Shown here piece after piece: positions 4,043 to 48,322 of a stretch of DNA of 64,000 nt. This DNA comes from Eubacteriales bacterium. GTDB taxonomy: Bacteria > Bacillota > Clostridia > Oscillospirales > CAG-272. Where the stretch lies: NCBI GenBank assembly GCA_045645205.1, contig JAZRIJ010000043.1, positions 11,341 through 75,340 on the forward strand, in the 5' to 3' direction. Each line of letters begins with the position of its first letter. Position 1 is the first letter of the stretch. Made by a program: the position numbers and the translations under genes. The notes under the pieces were generated by a model that saw only the letters and a program-made list of their open reading frames with translations, ran no database searches and was not told where the DNA came from.

Positions 4043-4882
4043 TTGAAAAATCTGTTTCAAAACAAATTTATGATAGTGCTTATAGTAATTTCTGTGTTGC
4101 TCGTAGGCACGACATCGTTCATCTCAGCTTTAGGCTATACCTCCTATGTCAGAAATGCCATAGGTATTGTTTTAACGCCCGTTCAGCAGGGAGCAAACTT
4201 TATTTTTGACAGCATTGAAAATATTTTTTCTTCAAAAGAAGACTACAAGAAGCTGAAAAAAGAAAATGAAGAATTAAAAAAGCAACTTGCCGATAACAAA
4301 GCTTGTCTTTCCGAGGCAGAGCTTGCAATTGCACAATACAAAGAGCTGAAAAATTACCTCGGCATTAAGGAAGAACATACCAACATTACTTTTGAAAACG
4401 CAGTCGTAACAGGCAGACAGTCAGGCACACACACAACGATATATACCGTAAACAAGGGTACCTATCACGGCATTAACCCCGGTATGCCTGTTATAGACAA
4501 TTACGGTGTTGTTGGCTGTGTCAGCGAGGCAGGACTTACATGGTGCAAGGTTACATCGGTTATTGAACCTGATATCTCATTAGGTATAATTGTTGAACGA
4601 ACAGGAGACAGCGGTATTTGTAACGGAAGCTTTACGGCAGCAAAGAACGGACTTTGTGTTGTGTCATACCTTCCTGCAGATACTGACATTAAAGAAGGTG
4701 ACATAATAATTACATCAGATGAAAGCTCTGTGTACCCAAAGGGACTTCTTGTAGGAACGATAAAATCAATTGAACCTGATCCCGTTTCAAGAGAAATAAA
4801 AGCATACGTTGAACCGGCGTCAAATCTTACGGAAGTAGAAAAGGTAATGATAATTACCGGATTTGAAAGCGTTTATGAATAA
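4043..4882 (+). CDS. mreC: rod shape-determining protein MreC
   Basis: N-terminal TM segment, a coiled coil (KKENEELKKQLADN) and a C-terminal beta domain with GDIIITS...YPKGLLVGTI. It follows mreB. Confidence 0.9.
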   Translation: MKNLFQNKFMIVLIVISVLLVGTTSFISALGYTSYVRNAIGIVLTPVQQGANFIFDSIENIFSSKEDYKKLKKENEELKKQLADNKACLSEAELAIAQYKELKNYLGIKEEHTNITFENAVVTGRQSGTHTTIYTVNKGTYHGINPGMPVIDNYGVVGCVSEAGLTWCKVTSVIEPDISLGIIVERTGDSGICNGSFTAAKNGLCVVSYLPADTDIKEGDIIITSDESSVYPKGLLVGTIKSIEPDPVSREIKAYVEPASNLTEVEKVMIITGFESVYE

Positions 4883-5420
4883 GAATTTCAGTTTAGATTA
4901 TTTATTGGATATACTTATTTACGGTCTGCTTGCCATACTACTTGCGGTATTGCAAACGACCCTTTTGCCGCGCTTTCAGATATATAACGCTCTGCCCGAT
5001 ATAATAATAGGCGCTGTCTGCTGTATCGGGGTATACAGAAGAGAGAACATTTCGGCGCTTTTCGGTTTATTTGCCGGACTATGTGTTGAAGCTTTGGGCA
5101 GCACGGGTCTTTCTTTACTTCCTCTGTTTTATACCTTTGCAGGCTATGTCTGCGGAAGAGTGGGAACAAACGCAAGAGAAAAAGCTCACTTTGCCGCATT
5201 TCTCATATCCCTGCCTTTGCTATGCCTTTCAAGAACAGTTCTTTCATTCTTTAATCATTTTATAAATTACTTTGGAAATTTAGATTTTAAACAACTTTTT
5301 CTCTTTACCATTTTACCCGAATATATATATACTCTCGTTATGTGTTTTCCCGTTTTTTTGTTGGTAAAGCTATTTGAGATCCCATTAAATGCCACAAGGA
5401 AGAGAGGAGGATTGTATTGA
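4875..5420 (+). CDS. mreD: rod shape-determining protein MreD
   Basis: Polytopic membrane protein. Its ATG at 4875 overlaps the mreC stop (ATGAATAA) and it sits in the canonical mreBCD position. Confidence 0.8.
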   Translation: MNKNFSLDYLLDILIYGLLAILLAVLQTTLLPRFQIYNALPDIIIGAVCCIGVYRRENISALFGLFAGLCVEALGSTGLSLLPLFYTFAGYVCGRVGTNAREKAHFAAFLISLPLLCLSRTVLSFFNHFINYFGNLDFKQLFLFTILPEYIYTLVMCFPVFLLVKLFEIPLNATRKRGGLY

Positions 5421-7513
5421 AAAAACAAGGAAGATACAATTTCAGATACATTTTACTGACCGCTCTTTTTATTCTTGTATTTGTTGCGTTTTTTGCAAAG
5501 ATAATATACATGCAGTACACAGCACCCGAAAAAACAACCGATTCCGAGCTGTCGGTCAGAACGCTGAACGTTAAGGCACTAAGGGGCGAAATATACGACC
5601 GCAACGGAATTAAGCTTGTATCAAACAACTATACATACGACGTTCACCTCGATGCAGGCAGTTTGCCAAAAAGCAATTTTGGTATAAACAACACGCTTAT
5701 TACTCTTATTAATATTTTAGACGAAGACATAGACACTCCTTTTTTCCCTATTCAAAACGAACTTGAAAATGCGGAATACAAAGCTTTTGAAACTGATAGT
5801 TCAGAATATAAGAGCTTTATGAAAATGCTGGACAGATTCAATCTTTCAAGAGACACCTCATGCCAAGACTTAATTGCTTTTCTATGCAACAGATACGGAC
5901 TAATCGGCAGAGATAATAAATATACAGTTGATGAAAAATATATTATTTCGGTAACAGCATTGCGTTATGAAGCCGAAAGACAAAATTTCAGTACTCTTAA
6001 TCCCTTTACAGTTGCCACAAATATAACTTTGAAAAAGCTAACCGCAGTGGAGGAAGCCTATCTTGACGGTGTCGAGATAGAAAAGAACGCAGATCGGATT
6101 TACAACTATCCGGGTTATGCCAGCCATATACTTGGCAGAACAGGTAAAATACAGTCAGAGGATTTAGAGTACTATACTGAAAAAGGATACTCCATGGACG
6201 CAATTGTCGGTATTGACGGAGTTGAGAAATCATTTGAGGAATACTTGAGGGGGATTGACGGCACACTTGTTATTGTAGAAGACAAAAACGGAAATATAGT
6301 TGACGAATACTACAAGACCGAGCCTGTTCCCGGCAAAGACATATATCTTACACTCGATATAAATTTACAGATAACAGCTGAAGACTCCCTTGCATATAAT
6401 ATTGAATATATAAAAACTAAGGCTGACAAGGAAATTGCCGAAGAAACAGCAAAATATACCGATAATAACGGTAATCTTCTTCCCAATGCCGATATACCGC
6501 AATATATAGGCGAAGACGTTACATCAGGAGCGGCTACTTTAGTTAACCCAAACAACGGTGAAATATACGCCCTGGCTTCCTATCCAACCTTTGATCTTTC
6601 TACATTTTTGCAGGATTATAACAGTTTACTCAAAGCAGAAAACACTCCCCTTTTCAACAGAGCTCTGCTTGGCACCTACGAGCCTGGTTCTACATTTAAA
6701 ATAAGCGTAGCGGCAGCTGCTCTTGAACACGGTATCATAAACAGAAATACAACTATTTTTGACAGCGGAGTATATAAATATTACAAAGACTTTCAGCCTG
6801 AATGTTGGATATATACATCTTACGGCTACGGGCACGGCAATATGAACGTTATATCAGCCATTCAACATTCCTGCAACTACTTCTTTTATGATATAGGAAA
6901 ACAATTAACCATTAATACTCTTAATTCATATTGCAAAACCTTAGGACTTGGTCAACATACGGGAATTGAACTTCCCGAAGCAAACGGAATTTTGGCAGGT
7001 CCCGAATACAGCGCATCTATCAATAAGCAATGGGTTCCCGGCGATACAGTACAGGCATCAATCGGACAATCGGACAATACATTTACTCCACTACAAATAT
7101 CCATGTATCTTTCAACCATCGTCAACGGTGGAACAAGATATAAGGCGCATTTGCTCCATTCTGTCCGTGAATACGGCACAAATAAGATAATATATGAGGA
7201 ATTGCCATCGGCTTTAAACACTGTTCAGTTATCAGCCGAGAATCTTGAAATTTTAAAAACAGGTATGAAAAACGTTATGGAAAACGGTACTGCCGCCCCT
7301 GTTTTTTCAGATTATCCCATTGAAATGGGTGGTAAAACCGGTACTGCGCAGGTTGGAAAAAACAAGAGTAACAATGGTATTTTTATGGCATTTGCTCCTT
7401 ATGATGTTCCCGAGATCGTTGCATCCTGCATTATTGAGCAGGCAGGAGGCAGTAATGACGTCGGATTGACTGTAAGGCGAATGTTTAACAAATATTTTAA
7501 TATTGTTGAATAA
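5417..7513 (+). CDS. mrdA: penicillin-binding protein 2 (elongation transpeptidase)
   Basis: TTG start after a GGAGGA RBS. It has an N-terminal TM segment, RGEIYDRNG, the STFK active-site motif, and KTGTAQ. Confidence 0.9.
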   Translation: MKKQGRYNFRYILLTALFILVFVAFFAKIIYMQYTAPEKTTDSELSVRTLNVKALRGEIYDRNGIKLVSNNYTYDVHLDAGSLPKSNFGINNTLITLINILDEDIDTPFFPIQNELENAEYKAFETDSSEYKSFMKMLDRFNLSRDTSCQDLIAFLCNRYGLIGRDNKYTVDEKYIISVTALRYEAERQNFSTLNPFTVATNITLKKLTAVEEAYLDGVEIEKNADRIYNYPGYASHILGRTGKIQSEDLEYYTEKGYSMDAIVGIDGVEKSFEEYLRGIDGTLVIVEDKNGNIVDEYYKTEPVPGKDIYLTLDINLQITAEDSLAYNIEYIKTKADKEIAEETAKYTDNNGNLLPNADIPQYIGEDVTSGAATLVNPNNGEIYALASYPTFDLSTFLQDYNSLLKAENTPLFNRALLGTYEPGSTFKISVAAAALEHGIINRNTTIFDSGVYKYYKDFQPECWIYTSYGYGHGNMNVISAIQHSCNYFFYDIGKQLTINTLNSYCKTLGLGQHTGIELPEANGILAGPEYSASINKQWVPGDTVQASIGQSDNTFTPLQISMYLSTIVNGGTRYKAHLLHSVREYGTNKIIYEELPSALNTVQLSAENLEILKTGMKNVMENGTAAPVFSDYPIEMGGKTGTAQVGKNKSNNGIFMAFAPYDVPEIVASCIIEQAGGSNDVGLTVRRMFNKYFNIVE

Positions 7514-7540
7514 ATATTATTTTTACGGAGTTTTAGTAAA

Positions 7541-8743
7541 ATGAAAAAAATTATACTTTTAATGATTGTATGTACAGTTGCAATTATTTCACTGTCATGT
7601 AAATCAAAAACACCCGATACAAATGGATTTGAGTGTGAATTTGACAATGAAACCATGACTGCCTCTGTTATGGGATATACCGGAAACGAAGACGTTATAA
7701 CCATTCCTAAGCTTATCGGGGACTACACTGTAACTTCAATCGGCAGGAATGCATTTAAAGAAATGTATGATGTTTCTAAAATATTAATCCCAGAAACAGT
7801 TACATCAATAGAAGCCTCGGCATTTGAGCTATGCGTAAGTCTTGAAGAAATTATCCTTCCCTCTTCTTTGCAAAAACTTGGAAATACAGCCTTTGCAAGC
7901 TGTCGCAGCTTGAAAAAAATAACAATTCCTGCAAATGTATCATCTATTGGTCTTTGCGTATTTACGGGATGTACATCTCTTGAAACCATAAAGGTTGATG
8001 AAAACAATATAAGCTATTCTTCGGACAAATACGGCGTACTGCTTGACAAAAATCAAACAACAGTTATTCAATTCCCTTTAGGCAGTCAGCACTTAAACTA
8101 TGAAATGCCCGAAACAGTTACAAAAATTTTAAGTTATGCATTTGAAAAAACGCAGTATCTTGAAGCGGTAACATTTTCTCCCAAGCTAAAAATTATTGAA
8201 AGCTACGCTTTTCAGGCATCAAGTATTAGAGAAGCAATTTTTTTCGACGGACTTGAAGAAATCGGTTCATTTTGCTTTAATGAATCAAAGTTAATTACCC
8301 TTGAACTTGGAAACACGGTAAAAAAGCTGGGCGACTCCGCTTTTAGTTGGTGCGTATCTCTCGGTAATGTTACTATCCCGGCCCCCCTTGAAAGTATCGG
8401 CACATCAGCATTCTATATGTGTACTTCTGTATCAGAATATAAAGTTGACAAAGATAACAAAGCTTTTTTGAGTGATGAAAACGGTGTGCTTTTTGATAAG
8501 AGTATGACCTATCTTATGTATTATCCTATAGCAAGCACAGCAACGGAATATACTATTCCCTATGGAGTGGAAACTATCTCCGCACGAGCATTCTCTCCTT
8601 CGCTCAATCTGAAAATAGTTACAGTGCCTGATTCTGTCGAAACAATAAGCGAACAGGCATTTGCGTATTGTACAAACCTTAATAATATTGTCTATGAAGG
8701 AAGTCAGCCGAAAAATATAGCTGAAAACGCATTCGAAAAATAA
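7541..8743 (+). CDS. BspA-type leucine-rich-repeat surface lipoprotein
   Basis: Signal peptide ending ISLSC. About 23-aa repeats of the form IP..V..IG..AF..C..L..I recur throughout the protein (LRR_5 style). Confidence 0.8.
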   Translation: MKKIILLMIVCTVAIISLSCKSKTPDTNGFECEFDNETMTASVMGYTGNEDVITIPKLIGDYTVTSIGRNAFKEMYDVSKILIPETVTSIEASAFELCVSLEEIILPSSLQKLGNTAFASCRSLKKITIPANVSSIGLCVFTGCTSLETIKVDENNISYSSDKYGVLLDKNQTTVIQFPLGSQHLNYEMPETVTKILSYAFEKTQYLEAVTFSPKLKIIESYAFQASSIREAIFFDGLEEIGSFCFNESKLITLELGNTVKKLGDSAFSWCVSLGNVTIPAPLESIGTSAFYMCTSVSEYKVDKDNKAFLSDENGVLFDKSMTYLMYYPIASTATEYTIPYGVETISARAFSPSLNLKIVTVPDSVETISEQAFAYCTNLNNIVYEGSQPKNIAENAFEK

Positions 8744-8798
8744 ACTGTATTGTTTTGACCAAACTTTTTAGAGAGCATGACAGGTATTTTTTCTTATA

Positions 8799-8832
8799 CA
8801 AAAAAGGAGGCAAATGCCTCCTTTAAATTTTT
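8799..8832. terminator. bidirectional intrinsic terminator between the convergent LRR gene and pgsA
   Basis: Stem AAAGGAGGC / GCCTCCTTT (8803..8824), flanked by an A-run and a T-run. Confidence 0.7.
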
Positions 8833-8841
8833 AATATATGC

Positions 8842-9435
8842 TTACTTTTCGGGATCAAGCAAGGGCCAGTATGCCTTGAGATAGTCAAGTCCCGACCATA
8901 TCGTCATAAACACCATAAAAGCCAATGATACATAGCTCAAAACATGATATTGATTTATAAATGTATTTGCAAAAAATGCAGGTTCAAGAATCATTACAAG
9001 TATAGCAACTATCTGAGATACGGTCTTAATCTTTCCAAGATAAGCCGCCGCAATAACTACCGACGCGCCGTTTGATGCAATCATACGCAAAGAGGTTACT
9101 GCAAGCTCACGCAAGATAACCGTAAAAGTTGCCCATGCAAAAATCATAAAGAACAGTTTATCTTCTGTCAACGTTGTCAATATGGCTATATATCCGCCAA
9201 TCGTCATAAGTTTGTCTGCAACAGGGTCAAGAAATTTACCAAAATCCGTTATAAGATTATGCTTTCTTGCTATTTTTCCATCAAGCATATCGGTCAAAGC
9301 GGTAAGTCCGAATATTGCCGCCGCCGCTATTCTTGACCAAAACTGTCCAAATACGGGAAACATAATTATGAACATAAAAAACGGAATCATTATCATTCTT
9401 AAAACCGTCAATTTGTTCGGAAGATTCATTTTCAT
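8842..9435 (-). CDS. pgsA: CDP-diacylglycerol--glycerol-3-phosphate 3-phosphatidyltransferase
   Basis: NKLTVLRM, DMLDGKIAR and DPVADKL form the CDP-alcohol phosphatidyltransferase motif. Confidence 0.92.
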   Translation of the reverse strand: MKMNLPNKLTVLRMIMIPFFMFIIMFPVFGQFWSRIAAAAIFGLTALTDMLDGKIARKHNLITDFGKFLDPVADKLMTIGGYIAILTTLTEDKLFFMIFAWATFTVILRELAVTSLRMIASNGASVVIAAAYLGKIKTVSQIVAILVMILEPAFFANTFINQYHVLSYVSLAFMVFMTIWSGLDYLKAYWPLLDPEK

Positions 9436-43344: not shown

Positions 43345-43905
43345 ATGCCGCCTAAAGTAAAAATAACAAAAGAAGATATTATAAACGCCGCCGTTGACAT
43401 TGTACGTAATAACGGAGCGCAGGCAATTAATGCAAGAACGGTTGCCTCAATATTGAACTGTTCTACACAGCCTGTATTCTCTAATTTTGCAACAATGGAT
43501 GAACTACGCATTGCCGTTGTAGAAAAATCAGATTTATTGTGCGAAGAATATATGCAACGTGAAGTAGAAAGCGGAAACTTCCCCACTTACAAGGCAAACG
43601 GTATGGCGTATATTCGATTTGCCAAAGAGGAGAAAGAGCTGTTTAAGCTTTTATATATGCGCAACAGAATGGGAGAAGCAATTCCCGAAGAATCGGAGCA
43701 TATCAACAAAATGGAATCTATTGTGCATAATAACACCGGACTTGTCGGCGCAGATGCAAGGCTGTTCCATCTTGAGATGTGGGCGTATGTTCACGGAATT
43801 GCTACAATGTTTGCAACAGGATTTCTTGATCTTGATTGGGAGCTTGTCAGCAAAATGCTTACAGACGCCTATCAAGGACTGAGAAAGCAGTACGGAATGG
43901 AGTAA
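43345..43905 (+). CDS. TetR/AcrR family transcriptional regulator
   Basis: N-terminal HTH (IINAAVDIVRNNGAQAINARTVASILNCSTQPVFSNF) with an all-helical C-terminal domain. Confidence 0.88.
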   Translation: MPPKVKITKEDIINAAVDIVRNNGAQAINARTVASILNCSTQPVFSNFATMDELRIAVVEKSDLLCEEYMQREVESGNFPTYKANGMAYIRFAKEEKELFKLLYMRNRMGEAIPEESEHINKMESIVHNNTGLVGADARLFHLEMWAYVHGIATMFATGFLDLDWELVSKMLTDAYQGLRKQYGME

Positions 43906-43911
43906 TTAGAA

Positions 43912-44640
43912 ATGGATGCTATCAAAATAGAAGGATTAACTAAAAAATATAATGATGTGGTTGCAGTTGACAATCTCTTTCTTTCTATTTACAAGGGAGA
44001 GTTATTTTCTCTGCTCGGTGTAAACGGAGCCGGCAAAACCACAACAATCAAAATGCTTTCCTGTCTTACGCAGCCAACAAGCGGAGATGCTTTTTTAAAC
44101 GGAAAAAGTATTTGCAAAGATACTTCCGCTGTAAAAAAACTGATTGCAGTATCACCGCAGGAAACTGCTGTTGCCCGCGGTCTTTCGGTAAGAGAAAATC
44201 TTGAACTAATGTGTGGAGTTCACGGATTTCCTACCGAAAAACGCGAGAAAAAAATAGATGAGCTTACCAAGCTTCTCGGATTAAATGAAATCAGCAACAA
44301 GAAGGCGGCAAAGCTTTCAGGCGGTTGGCAGCGCAGACTGAGTATTGCAATGGCGCTTATCAGTGAGCCGGAAATTTTGTTCCTTGACGAACCCACACTT
44401 GGACTTGATGTAATCGCACGTAGTGATCTGTGGGATATTATTCGTTCCTTAAAGGGTAAAGTAACAATTATTCTTACAACTCACTATATGGAAGAAGCCG
44501 AGGCGCTTTCTGACCGTATTGCAATTATGAAAGACGGCAAACTTCTGATTTGTGATACTGCCGATAAGATTAAGGAAACAGCGCAGACTGATAATTTTGA
44601 ACAAGCCTTTGTTCGTATTGTTAGGGGGATGAAGAAATGA
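43912..44640 (+). CDS. ABC transporter ATP-binding protein
   Basis: Walker A GVNGAGKTT, signature LSGGWQRRL, and Walker B ILFLDEPT. Confidence 0.93.
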   Translation: MDAIKIEGLTKKYNDVVAVDNLFLSIYKGELFSLLGVNGAGKTTTIKMLSCLTQPTSGDAFLNGKSICKDTSAVKKLIAVSPQETAVARGLSVRENLELMCGVHGFPTEKREKKIDELTKLLGLNEISNKKAAKLSGGWQRRLSIAMALISEPEILFLDEPTLGLDVIARSDLWDIIRSLKGKVTIILTTHYMEEAEALSDRIAIMKDGKLLICDTADKIKETAQTDNFEQAFVRIVRGMKK

Positions 44641-45368
44641 GAATGTGGACATTTGCAAACAGAAACACAAAAGAAATTTTGCGAGACCCTCTCAATTTGG
44701 CTTTTGGATTGGGCTTTCCACTTGTACTGATTTTTTTACTAACCGCAATACAGGCAAATGCTCCTGTAAGTCTTTTTGAGATACAACATTTAACACCCGG
44801 TATTACAATATTCGGTCTTTCCTTTATAACGCTGTTTTCATCAACAATAATAGCAAAAGACAGAGGCAGCTCCCTTCTCCAAAGGCTATATACCACACCG
44901 ATGACTTCCATTGATTTTATTCTCGGATATACATTACCCATTATCCCTATTGCGATTGCTCAATGTATAGTTTGCTATATTGCAGCCATCGTTCTCGGAC
45001 TTGAAGTTACGGTAAATATTTTATATGCCGTTGTATTTATTATTCCGGTATCTATACTTTTTATTGCCCTCGGACTTCTTTGCGGAAGTGTGTTTACCGA
45101 TAAGCAAGTCGGCGGTATATGCGGCGCATTGCTTACAAACCTATCCGCTTGGTTATCGGGAATATGGTTTGACCTTGAGCTTGTCGGCGGAATTTTTCAA
45201 AAGATTGCAAATTTGTTGCCCTTTGTTCACGCCGTAGAGTTAGAACGCGCCGTACTCTCAGGAAATTTTGCTGATGTTTTTCCTCATATATGGTGGGTAC
45301 TTGCATATGATGCCGTTGTGCTCACAGCAGCAGTATTATTGTTTCTGCGTCAAATGAATAAACAATAA
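44637..45368 (+). CDS. ABC-2 type transporter permease
   Basis: 243 aa with 6 TM segments. An ATGA overlap links it to the ATPase gene. Confidence 0.85.
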   Translation: MRMWTFANRNTKEILRDPLNLAFGLGFPLVLIFLLTAIQANAPVSLFEIQHLTPGITIFGLSFITLFSSTIIAKDRGSSLLQRLYTTPMTSIDFILGYTLPIIPIAIAQCIVCYIAAIVLGLEVTVNILYAVVFIIPVSILFIALGLLCGSVFTDKQVGGICGALLTNLSAWLSGIWFDLELVGGIFQKIANLLPFVHAVELERAVLSGNFADVFPHIWWVLAYDAVVLTAAVLLFLRQMNKQ

Positions 45369-45378
45369 ATAAAATCTC

Positions 45379-46743
45379 CTATTCACTTGCTTTTATGGCG
45401 TTGTAAATCTGAGACAATGTGTTCCACGTTGTTGAAGTTACAACGCCTGTTTCTTTTATGCCAAACAATCTTTGAAAGGCTTTTACTGCATCTTCTGTTT
45501 GATCATCAAACTCGCCATTGACAGTTAAATTTGGTAATTCCGGATATATTTCCGCCACTTTATTTAAATAACTCTGCAAATATCGCACCTCAGTCCCCAC
45601 ACTACCCAATACAAGTATATTACCTTGATATGGAACGGCTGTCTCAGAAAATGCGCTCGGCGGAAGACTTGAATAAAGTCCGTCATATACATCGAGCAAC
45701 ACATTCCATACCTCTTGGGTTACCACACCGTCAGGTTCAAAACCAAATATACGCTGAAATGCCGTAACAGATTGATAAGTTTTTTCTCCAAAAACACCTA
45801 TTATATCCAACGGCGGAACACGGCCGTCAAAGGTTGAGACAAACAACAGATAATATTGTAAAAGCTTTACTAAATTTCCAACACTTCCGTACCGTAATTC
45901 CGAGCGTAATTCTGCAGGAATATCCTCAAGCTGCTGTCCCTGATATACAAGATAATTCAGACGGTATAGGCTGTCAAGCACATATAACAGCTTATAATAT
46001 GTATCCTTTTCTACTCTGCCCGTTACATTTAAATCAAATATCCGTTGAAACTCCCTTACTGCGTCTGATGTCTCTCCTCCGTATATACCGTTTGTATTTT
46101 CTATGTATGGAATAGTAGTATAGTTTGCGGATATTCTGTTCAATGCAATTTGAAGACTGCTTATATCCGCCCCGGACTGCCCCTGAAACATAGGGTAATC
46201 AAAAAAAATGCCGTTTTGCAGTCCGCTGACCGTTGCATTTCTTATAATTATAATGTCTCTGCCGTAATAATATCTAAGTATTTCCTCATAGCCACTCCCG
46301 TTTTCAGCCATTTCAATACTGCCCTCTACCGACAGTCCGCGGCAACGTATTCCTTCATAGCAGATCTCGGCATTTATGGGATCAACATCATATTCTCTTG
46401 ATATATACTCATTAAAAATATTGTCAACAATTTCGTTTATATTGCCGTAAACGCCTGCCGAATATACATAATCCAAGTCAAGCACAGGGTCATTGGTTAT
46501 ATCAAAGCCATACCCTTGTTTCCTGTACGACCTGTCAATTATTCTGTATAACGCGCGGCTTATTTGAGCGTATATTACAGCATACAACGCTTGTTCCGGT
46601 ATGTTTGGGTCAATGGTGGTGGATGCGACACTTTTTATATAATCAGGAAAAGAAACCGTTACATTTTCTGCTTCTTCATCAGGTGCGCCGAGATGTACGG
46701 TTATGTACGCCGGTATATCCGGCAAAGCATATTCATTTGTCAT
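45379..46743 (-). CDS. SleC-like cortex/peptidoglycan lytic enzyme body with three PG_binding_1 repeats
   Basis: IPAYITVHLGAPDE...FPDYIKSVAS...RKQGYGFDITN...YEEILRYYYG parallels the mature region of clostridial SleC as I recall it. Three repeats follow of the G..V..LQ..LN...P....DG.FG..T..AV..FQ..FGL..TG.V type. Confidence 0.7.
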   Translation of the reverse strand: MTNEYALPDIPAYITVHLGAPDEEAENVTVSFPDYIKSVASTTIDPNIPEQALYAVIYAQISRALYRIIDRSYRKQGYGFDITNDPVLDLDYVYSAGVYGNINEIVDNIFNEYISREYDVDPINAEICYEGIRCRGLSVEGSIEMAENGSGYEEILRYYYGRDIIIIRNATVSGLQNGIFFDYPMFQGQSGADISSLQIALNRISANYTTIPYIENTNGIYGGETSDAVREFQRIFDLNVTGRVEKDTYYKLLYVLDSLYRLNYLVYQGQQLEDIPAELRSELRYGSVGNLVKLLQYYLLFVSTFDGRVPPLDIIGVFGEKTYQSVTAFQRIFGFEPDGVVTQEVWNVLLDVYDGLYSSLPPSAFSETAVPYQGNILVLGSVGTEVRYLQSYLNKVAEIYPELPNLTVNGEFDDQTEDAVKAFQRLFGIKETGVVTSTTWNTLSQIYNAIKASE

Positions 46744-47045
46744 ATTTCTGCCTCCACAGGATAATTATATAACGGAAACATACCCACGTTCTGAATAGTT
46801 GTTATATTCTGCATTATGGGTATATCTCCATATTCGCTTTCAATAAATCCGTCAGCATAAACGTTAATCATATAATCATTTGCCGTTTGTAATGTAATAG
46901 TCTCTGTTTTTCCGTCAAGTCCTGTTATATATTCTCCTAAGGTTTCGTTTCCCCTTTTTAAAACAATTCTTGCGTTAACAACGGGAGATGCTCCATTTGC
47001 ATACCTCACGTTAACTATAAGGTATCCGATAGCGTTTGTATCCAT
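46740..47045 (-). CDS. small carboxypeptidase-regulatory-like beta-sandwich protein, resembles the SleC N-terminal pre/pro region
   Basis: GYLIVNVRYANGASPVVNARIVLKRGNETLGEYITGLDGKTETITL...INVYADGF is CarboxypepD_reg-like. The ATG at 47045 follows a GGAGGA RBS, and its stop overlaps the next start (ATGA). Confidence 0.6.
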   Translation of the reverse strand: MDTNAIGYLIVNVRYANGASPVVNARIVLKRGNETLGEYITGLDGKTETITLQTANDYMINVYADGFIESEYGDIPIMQNITTIQNVGMFPLYNYPVEAEI

Positions 47046-47106
47046 ATAATCCTCCAATATGCTGTTTATATATTATATGAAACCAAACACACTTTTGATT
47101 ATTGCA

Positions 47107-47137
47107 TAAAAAAACACCGCAGAAACAACTGCGATGT
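47107..47137 (-). terminator. intrinsic terminator after ftsZ
   Basis: Stem ACATCGCAG / CTGCGGTGT (one G-U pair), followed on the minus strand by TTTTTTT. Confidence 0.75.
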
Positions 47138-47158: not shown

Positions 47159-48322
47159 TTAGTTATTCTTTTTGAGAAGTGAAAGAATATCGTCAAAGTC
47201 GCTATCGGATATACCGTTGCCTACCTCGTCAGACTCGTTGCTGTTATCAGCATATTCATTTCTGAAAAGTCCGCTGTTGTCATCAAAATCATCAACGGGA
47301 GCTGCAGCTTTAACTTCATCAGCCTGCTTTGCAACTGTATATGCTTCCTGTGAAGCGCCCTTCTTTGCAGACTCAAAGCCTGTTGCAATAACAGTAACCT
47401 TCATCTCATCTTCAAGATTCTTATCAAATGTAGCCCCCCAGATAACCTGTGCATCGGGATGAGCTTCATTCTTGATCATGCTTGATGCAATGTCAACCTC
47501 TTCGAGAGCAATGTCAGGAGATGCTGTAATATTAACAAGTATACCTCTTGCGCCCTTGATAGATGTTTCAAGCAAGGGGCTGGAGATTGCAAGCTTAGCA
47601 GCCTGTTCTGCCTTGTCCTTACCTGTAGCCTGACCGACACCCATATGAGCGTTGCCTGCGTTAGACATAATAGCTGTAACGTCTGCAAAGTCAAGGTTAA
47701 TAACACCTGTTACATTGATAAGCTCGGAAATGCTCTGTACACCCTGTCTCAAAACGTCGTCTGCAATAATAAATGCATTGAGAAGAGTAAGTCTTGTTTC
47801 GGAAACCTGCTTAAGACGCTCGTTGGGAATGATTACAAGAGAGTCAACGCACTCGCCGAGCTTCTTTATACCCTCTTCAGCAAGCTCCATTCTCTTCTTA
47901 CCTTCAAAAAGAAAGGGTTTCGTAACGATACCAACTGTAAGTATTCCCATATCCTTTGCAATCTTTGCAACTACGGGAGCAGCTCCTGTTCCTGTTCCGC
48001 CGCCCATACCTGTTGTGATAAACACCATATCTGTTCCGCGGAGAATATTTGAAATTTCTTCAGCGCTTTCTTCGGCAGCGCGGTGTCCAATCTCGGGGTT
48101 AGCGCCCGCTCCTCTGCCTCTTGTCAGCTTTTCGCCGATAACGATTTTATGTGTTGCGCCCGATGTCTCAAGCACCTGTTTATCTGTATTTACTGCAATA
48201 AATTCAACGCCTCTTACACCTGCTTCGATCATGCGGTTTACAGCATTTGTACCGCCTCCGCCGACACCTACAACTTTAATATTAACTCCGCTGCTGTTTG
48301 CTTCTTCAAACTCAAATGCCAT
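47159..48322 (-). CDS. ftsZ: cell division protein FtsZ
   Basis: [13 protein letters not shown] and [13 protein letters not shown] are tubulin signature motifs. The C-terminal peptide reads DDILSLLKK. Confidence 0.98.

Follow-up and report, generated by a model that had tools for sequence, protein, structure and literature searches.

Two overlapping genes located directly downstream of ftsZ in the genome of Eubacteriales bacterium GCA_045645205.1 encode, as separate proteins, two parts of the clostridial spore cortex-lytic enzyme SleC. They lie in the window analysed here, a stretch of 64,000 nucleotides (nt) from contig 43 (JAZRIJ010000043.1) of a 1.75-Mb metagenome-assembled genome (MAG; G000) that is about 85% complete and consists of 89 contigs. 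Gene 1 (101 amino acids, aa) is a stand-alone homologue of the N-terminal β-sandwich of SleC; gene 2 (454 aa) is a SleC-type protein with three peptidoglycan (PG)-binding repeats, and the pro-peptide that Csp proteases cleave from SleC is missing from both. The split is conserved and both genes are under purifying selection. In the lineage of the window the active-site motifs have been lost from gene 2, and the same genome encodes a canonical SleC together with Csp proteases. From sequence comparison and predicted structures we consider it probable that these genes form a maintained pseudo-enzyme pair, predicted to bind the spore wall without cutting it.

Counterparts of the two genes in SleC

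Searched as a single sequence, gene 1 gave no match in the PDB (phmmer) and none in NCBIfam, and its similarity to CarboxypepD_reg (PF13620), at 17.0 bits, stayed below the Pfam gathering cut-off of 32.3. Exhaustive phmmer searches with gene 1 retrieved many stand-alone relatives of 85–240 aa, and a profile built from 26 stand-alone homologues (A1) matched the N-terminal region of the Clostridioides difficile SleC zymogen (9h68) over the whole profile length (E 2e-5). The same profile aligned with residues 10–114 of the canonical SleC encoded in the window genome (hhalign probability 97%, E 1e-10). Among the 12,526 six-frame open reading frames (ORFs) of this genome it matched gene 1 and the N-terminus of the canonical SleC (E 3e-12) and nothing else, so in this genome the sandwich is of a SleC-specific and not of a generic kind. 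The AlphaFold model of the gene 1 product (predicted local distance difference test, pLDDT, 92) is a seven-strand sandwich, whose best fold match in the PDB is again 9h68 (template-modelling score 0.76–0.77; root-mean-square deviation 1.8 Å on chain C). Transthyretin-like and carboxypeptidase D domains are among the fold matches, the SleC pre-domain being the closest relative.

Two successive cleavages shape SleC in the organisms in which it has been studied. In C. perfringens, the pre-peptide is removed in sporulation to give pro-SleC, and a Csp protease cuts off the pro-peptide at germination (PMC3567191). In C. difficile, YabG turns the 47-kDa pre-pro-SleC into the 34-kDa pro-SleC (PMC10681294), cutting after R119 in an SRQS motif at residues 117–121 (PMC6464247). 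Gene 1 ends a few residues past its β-sandwich. Since the YabG cut, too, follows the sandwich by only a few residues, gene 1 corresponds to the YabG-removed pre-peptide of SleC and not to the pro-peptide that Csp cleaves. The original prediction, made from the window alone, had taken the 101-aa ORF for the N-terminal pro-domain of SleC. Its homology to the SleC N-terminus, which was to be checked, is significant by profile, by hhalign and by fold; the assignment as the Csp-removed pro-peptide has to be given up in favour of the pre-peptide.

Gene 2 matches 9h68 over both the catalytic and the PG-binding parts (phmmer, E 3e-41) and has PG_binding_1 in three stretches (Pfam, E 7e-41), as against one in canonical SleC. 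Its AlphaFold model (pLDDT 85) was aligned by Foldseek with 9h68 at E 4e-20 over 263–268 columns (root-mean-square deviation 2.5–2.8 Å), with SpoIID further down the list. Compared with the canonical SleC of the same genome, gene 2 is 38% identical in an alignment that runs from canonical residue 162 onward, and begins about at the N-terminus of mature SleC, which we take to be Val150 in C. perfringens numbering. Both this start and the three repeats had been read correctly from the sequence, as had the derivation of the large ORF from SleC. The segment between the two homologous regions of the canonical protein, i.e., its linker and pro-peptide (about residues 115–160, some 45 residues that include the Csp site), is not represented in either gene: the Csp-cleaved pro-peptide is absent from the pair.

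Active-site loss beside a canonical SleC/Csp system

In an alignment of 120 relatives of gene 2, the 27 protein clusters that are nearest to the window, with at least 50% identity, stand out as a subclade. The motif YIKNVASSEIYPTWPE...NRIYTE.YR is invariant in this alignment save in these 27 clusters, where position 43, the site of the invariant Glu, is occupied by T, Q, N, S, A, L or V. Read in profile columns, all 131 sequences outside the subclade retain E43, W48 and W140, whereas all seven subclade sequences have these residues replaced, with T or Q at position 43. The window protein has Thr43 for the Glu and SVEG for SQWG. Altogether, fourteen catalytic-domain positions that are invariant elsewhere have been lost in 93–100% of the subclade, in our summary the Glu, the SQWG motif and eleven more invariant positions. 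The balance of conservation between the two halves of the protein changed as well: mean pairwise identity of the catalytic versus the PG-binding region is 0.73 versus 0.52 among active members and 0.53 versus 0.58 in the subclade, so the ratio falls from 1.41 to 0.91. The proteins without the Glu form one clade (support 99; stem 0.45) inside the clade of split forms, in a quick maximum-likelihood tree of 86 catalytic domains with the root assumed on csp-linked canonical SleCs.

The probable meaning of the lost Glu comes from SpoIID. In the profile of active members, the VASSEIY motif aligns with VVASEM of SpoIID structure 4rwr and with VLAGEM of 5txu, whose Glu is numbered 101. C. difficile SpoIID uses E101 as its catalytic glutamate, and the E101A variant is stable but inactive (PMC6221140). 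The Pfam SpoIID model (PF08486) matched the canonical SleC over the VASSEIY segment above the cut-off and did not match gene 2; TIGR02669 reached only the C-terminal YY part of gene 2 (residues 136–160), far below its cut-off. We infer that gene 2 of the window lineage has lost catalysis, and the label of a catalytic ORF, under which it was originally described, is probably wrong. Nevertheless, the pair is not decaying. At a divergence that is not saturated (dS of 0.6–1.6), the ratio of non-synonymous to synonymous substitution rates (dN/dS) is 0.07–0.09 for gene 2 and 0.05–0.16 for gene 1; at about 0.08, this is strong purifying selection.

The pair is a paralogue and not the only SleC of this organism. 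On contig 34 (locus L012), a cspB-like gene (E 9e-108 to a solved germination subtilase) and a cspA/C-like gene are accompanied by a divergent gene whose product aligns with 9h68 from end to end (E 5e-140), the canonical fused SleC. By visual inspection of alignments, the Asp/His/Ser triad appears intact in both Csp homologues. The pair, on contig 43, is not linked to this cluster. The genome also encodes SpoIVA, a GerA-type receptor, a SleB/CwlJ-type hydrolase, SpoIID and SpoIIGA, and the organism is a sporeformer; of the genes for which a genome search had been suggested, csp-like, SleB/CwlJ-type and spoIIGA genes are represented. In each of the seven subclade genomes examined (G000, G044 and G151–G155) a canonical SleC adjoins two csp genes, and these seven SleCs are 86–90% identical among themselves. 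Two CspB-like matches contain in-frame stops near the N-terminal end of the match, namely G044:C37:1779-3575 (two TGA) and G152:C22:38730-40535 (two TGA and one TAA); the matches may overrun the true start, or the genes may be broken.

The wider distribution of these proteins was analysed in 151 genomes of the window's order, 149 of them of high quality. SpoIVA was present in 143, whereas a CspB-like protease was found in only eight; in seven of these eight a csp gene lies within about 3 kb of a SleC-type gene on the same contig. YabG (PF05582), a protease that the literature counts among the signatures of sporulation, was found in none of the 151 genomes, which for the eight Csp-bearing ones raises the question of the route by which canonical pre-pro-SleC is trimmed. 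Thirty split-type genomes of the sample have neither Csp nor a canonical SleC, and all 30 keep the active-site motifs, including the Glu. At the level of the family the enzyme therefore cannot depend on Csp or YabG, and the Glu-retaining split pair may well be the cortex-lytic enzyme of these Csp-less, YabG-less sporeformers.

The same was originally proposed for the window itself: an active cortex-lytic enzyme with an inhibitory or chaperoning pro-domain supplied in trans, for which Csp cleavage is needless. Besides the 30 Csp-less genomes, the coupled translation and universal pairing of the two genes argue for it, as they suggest an action of the sandwich protein on the enzyme or jointly with it. 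The idea that the split makes Csp cleavage needless is consistent with the data for the family, but the window genome owns both a canonical SleC and Csp; moreover, the window protein has neither the predicted catalytic Glu nor the SQWG motif, and gene 1 corresponds to the pre-peptide and not to the pro-peptide on which Csp would act. We regard an active window pair as rather unlikely.

Less likely still is a neo-functionalised hydrolase, in which the catalytic acid was relocated, for example to Asp85, or the substrate or chemistry altered. Such a protein would fit with Asp85, which is shared by 93% of the subclade and is Ser elsewhere, and with the strong purifying selection on the former catalytic domain, with 0.04–0.06 of non-synonymous (pN) versus 0.46–0.59 of synonymous (pS) sites differing. 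It fits poorly with the loss of fourteen invariant positions at once, both SpoIID-type motifs included, and with the variety of residues at position 43, as expected under relaxed constraint at an old active site.

Asp85 as a possible alternative catalytic residue, and the constraint on the former catalytic domain, which would fit an altered chemistry or substrate as well, also weigh against a pair that only binds, and so do several other points. The catalytic role of the VASSEIY Glu is deduced from homology and invariance, with a weak stretch-level alignment to SpoIID (11.9 bits to 4rwr) and the Pfam SpoIID match. When the SleC catalytic profile was compared with the SpoIID of the genome by hhalign, only the C-terminal motif was aligned (79%), so the alignment of the N-terminal Glu motif rests on hmmsearch and Pfam. 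The loss of the Glu in the presence of canonical SleC/Csp is a single, unreplicated evolutionary event in one clade. The −10-like element upstream of the pair, CATATAAT, is equally compatible with the mother-cell factors sigma-E/K and with sigma-A, for which it has a perfect TATAAT. Finally, the tree was made by a quick method, and its root on canonical SleC is an assumption.

Locus, conservation and origin of the split

The features of the locus are listed in Table 1. As predicted, the two minus-strand ORFs, their ATGA overlap and the GGAGGA ribosome-binding site are all present, and the pair lies behind a hairpin with a T-run that terminates ftsZ. ORF calling had placed the start of gene 1 at TTG 47057, giving a longer frame; because this codon overlaps the Shine-Dalgarno sequence, ATG 47045 is the likely start. 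The further idea that the pair stands in for spoIIGA-sigE-sigG, which B. subtilis and many clostridia carry after ftsZ, did not hold: spoIIGA is present on contig 51, and the position after ftsZ therefore replaces nothing.

Table 1 Features of the split SleC-type locus in the window and of the canonical germination cluster on contig 34
Feature	Sequence	Position	Strand	Remarks
Gene 1	Window	46740..47045	minus	101 aa from ATG 47045; stop TGA 46740..46742; stand-alone homologue of the SleC N-terminal 'pre' β-sandwich
Gene 2	Window	45379..46743	minus	454 aa; SleC-type SpoIID-like fold and three PG_binding_1 repeats; without pre- or pro-peptide
SleC/SpoIID-like domain of gene 2	Window	46210..46722	minus	Residues 8–178; active-site motifs eroded
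Thr43 codon of gene 2	Window	46615..46617	minus	Position of the family-invariant Glu (VASSEIY motif) aligning with SpoIID catalytic E101
SVEG of gene 2	Window	46321..46332	minus	Residues 138–141; SQ(W/Y)G in the family and in SpoIID
PG_binding_1 repeat 1	Window	45979..46188	minus	About residues 186–255 of gene 2
PG_binding_1 repeat 2	Window	45694..45897	minus	About residues 283–350 of gene 2
PG_binding_1 repeat 3	Window	45406..45612	minus	About residues 378–446 of gene 2
ATGA overlap	Window	46740..46743	minus	Gene 1 stop/gene 2 start; read from the sequence
GGAGG before gene 2	Window	46751..46755	minus	7 nt before the gene 2 ATG; own Shine-Dalgarno of gene 2
GGAGGA Shine-Dalgarno of gene 1	Window	47050..47055	minus	Read from the sequence
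−10-like promoter element CATATAATA	Window	47071..47079	minus	Conserved; fits mother-cell sigma-E/K (CATAnnnTA), also holds sigma-A TATAAT
Terminator-like hairpin and T-run of ftsZ	Window	47104..47137	minus	Sets the pair apart from ftsZ
ftsZ	Window	47159..48322	minus	Ends upstream of gene 1; followed by the hairpin and T-run
cspA/C-like gene	Contig 34 (L012)	4318-6024	minus	569 aa
cspB-like gene	Contig 34 (L012)	6024-7859	minus	612 aa
Canonical SleC gene	Contig 34 (L012)	7842-9101	plus	420 aa

The −10-like element is found, 25–35 nt upstream of the start, as CATATAAT(A/G) or CATATTATG in the window and loci L013, L015, L016 and L017/L005, and is preceded by AC-N17 in L013 and L015. Expression of the pair may be specific to sporulation. 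The perfect sigma-A TATAAT within this element and the position of the pair, which in the window and its close relatives directly follows the dcw cluster and ftsZ, could also be those of a vegetative cell-wall or division factor tied to ftsZ and unrelated to spores, but we find this very unlikely. The terminator stands between ftsZ and the pair, and linkage to ftsZ is restricted to the subclade, whereas a 43%-identical relative is flanked by MatE and thioredoxin genes. Inspected by eye, neither product shows a signal peptide or membrane anchor, which leaves the export of such a factor unexplained, and all relatives of known function (SleC and SpoIID) act in sporulation or germination.

Next to the pair on its downstream side, in convergent orientation (43345..45368, plus strand), are genes for a TetR-like regulator, an ABC ATPase and an ABC-2 permease, as read from their translations. 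In L005, a 65%-identical relative, ctsR-mcsA-mcsB-clpC are the downstream neighbours instead, and this flank is therefore variable.

Rather than a frameshift, the split is a conserved layout with coupled translation of the two genes. The architecture of gene 2 recurs in more than 3000 database relatives of about 455–470 aa, and it is present in the genomes of at least 594 species. A separate ORF that lies immediately upstream on the same strand and ends in the A1 domain was found in the genomes of 78 of 80 named species; the two exceptions are loci cut by contig ends, and in no case were the genes fused. The partner gene is likewise separate in 29 further genomes and in G136, which together are the 30 Csp-less split-type genomes of the order sample (30/30). 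In the 65%-identical relative, ftsZ is followed by a 100-aa ORF and then by a 459-aa ORF, and both frames are intact in all 27 protein clusters of the window's subclade. Recurrence in independent assemblies bears out the earlier argument that the ATGA overlap reflects coupling rather than a recent frameshift, and it settles whether the orthologues are fused or split. A sequencing or assembly error or a decaying pseudogene, of which one might think in a MAG of 85% completeness and 89 contigs, was rejected as hardly credible on the recurring layout and the dN/dS of about 0.08, and gene 2 has its own Shine-Dalgarno sequence.

The upstream partner varies in size from 72 to 432 aa, with the A1 domain mostly C-terminal, behind a variable and often low-complexity N-terminal extension. 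In the partner of locus L001 (2884-4008; P0121, 374 aa) and in others of up to 432 aa this extension is long, rich in Pro, Glu and Gln and disordered-looking; it is missing from the 101-aa version of the window. Most Glu-retaining split loci (L018-L092; e.g., L018 4886-5449) contain a third, downstream ORF of about 175–200 aa with only PG_binding_1 repeats, which makes them three-gene modules. This third gene does not occur in the window's subclade.

Other families of the order encode fused proteins of 590–936 aa in total, in which the sandwich is followed by a linker of 33–46 aa, the catalytic fold and many PG-binding repeats. Examples are L093-L112 (among them L096 2107-4914, 936 aa, and L102 2783-5563, 927 aa) and P0115 of Clostridium weizhouense (786 aa). 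These fused multi-repeat proteins occur mostly in genomes without Csp and represent a further undescribed SleC architecture. In the tree, the nine csp-linked canonical SleCs make up one clade (support 100), and the fused multi-repeat forms are basal in its sister clade (support 100). All split forms, the window pair among them, constitute one clade (support 98) nested among the fused multi-repeat forms, which argues for a single fission. A SleC-like protein of locus L106 (G103:C4, 595-aa frame), with an end branch of 1.29, has no detectable sandwich domain and keeps the Glu; it was placed beside the Glu-less clade, a placement that is unreliable.

Proposed role and comparison with known systems

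We propose that an ancestral multi-repeat SleC-like lytic transglycosylase split at the pre/pro boundary, giving rise to a 'born-mature' enzyme and a free pre-domain. In Csp-less, YabG-less sporeformers this split system would serve as the cortex-lytic enzyme, activated by something other than Csp. In the lineage of the window, the canonical SleC/Csp system would be doing the cortex hydrolysis, while the split paralogue would have lost catalysis and been retained along with its partner in a role that requires no catalysis but still depends on the fold and the three PG-binding repeats. The window gene 2 product would then be a non-catalytic binder of cortex or peptidoglycan, made with its β-sandwich partner, probably in the sporulating mother cell, and the function of the pair in the spore may be structural or regulatory. 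The two products might interact physically, and the gene 1 product could be a chaperone, inhibitor or docking factor.

Going further, we put forward tentatively, as a possibility that we ourselves hold with some doubt, that the dead cortex-binding SleC paralogue and its sandwich partner are a germination regulator or scaffold, which might mark or protect the cortex or dock the Csp/SleC machinery, in the manner of the CspC/CspA pseudoproteases, and that the active split relatives are a Csp- and YabG-independent 'born-mature' cortex-lytic system of hundreds of uncultured gut sporeformers.

These data point to a large group of uncultured gut sporeformers that hydrolyse their cortex without the textbook Csp/YabG route, either with the pre-domain and the mature enzyme encoded as separate coupled genes or with a fused form that has many PG-binding repeats. 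This raises the question of how an 'already processed' cortex-lytic enzyme stays silent in the dormant spore. The window lineage amounts to a natural experiment, in which the canonical SleC and Csp are present and the split paralogue has no catalytic residues, yet is strongly conserved. A conserved paralogue without the Glu points to a non-catalytic role of a SleC-fold protein in spores. These findings bear on the germination of commensal spores in the gut, and hence on the transmission of the microbiota and the culturing of these organisms. Our literature search found no paper on a split SleC or a pseudo-SleC.

Cortex hydrolysis in clostridia, as told in textbooks, relies on SleC that is activated by Csp proteases after trimming by YabG, and was worked out in two pathogens. 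With the canonical SleC of these organisms (C. difficile 9h68; C. perfringens), the pair shares a β-sandwich, a SpoIID-like catalytic fold and PG_binding_1, all of them homologous. Unlike canonical SleC, it has the sandwich in a separate gene, no pro-peptide or Csp site, three repeats and no linkage to csp, and the subclade of the window is without the invariant Glu and the SQWG motif.

Closest to the pair is the split multi-repeat SleC-like family of uncultured Oscillospiraceae/Clostridia, with the same two-gene layout and order of domains, whose members are annotated as 'peptidoglycan-binding protein' or 'spore cortex-lytic protein'. The other members of this family differ from the window in that they keep E43, W48, Q139 and W140 and have a better-conserved catalytic domain, often with a third PG-binding-only gene downstream, in genomes that have no Csp or canonical SleC. 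SpoIID belongs to the same fold family as gene 2, and the motifs VxxSE(M/I) and G(M/L)SQ(Y/W)G...YY are common to SpoIID and the active members of the SleC family. It is, however, a membrane-anchored, zinc-binding protein of engulfment, whereas the window protein has neither motif intact (Thr43, SVEG).

Two further systems resemble the pair in function rather than in descent. SleB of Bacillus is a cortex-lytic enzyme that is co-expressed with a partner, YpeB, needed for its stability and possibly for its inhibition. The likeness to a bicistronic lytic enzyme with an accessory protein, in which the enzyme itself undergoes no zymogen cleavage, is one of functional analogy only (PMC13393411): the folds are unrelated (Hydrolase_2 in SleB, PepSY domains in YpeB), and the gene order is reversed. 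The CspC and CspA pseudoproteases of C. difficile, catalytically dead paralogues retained as regulators of germination (PMC7200643, PMC6636752), belong to another enzyme family, the subtilases, but set a precedent for keeping dead paralogues in the same process.

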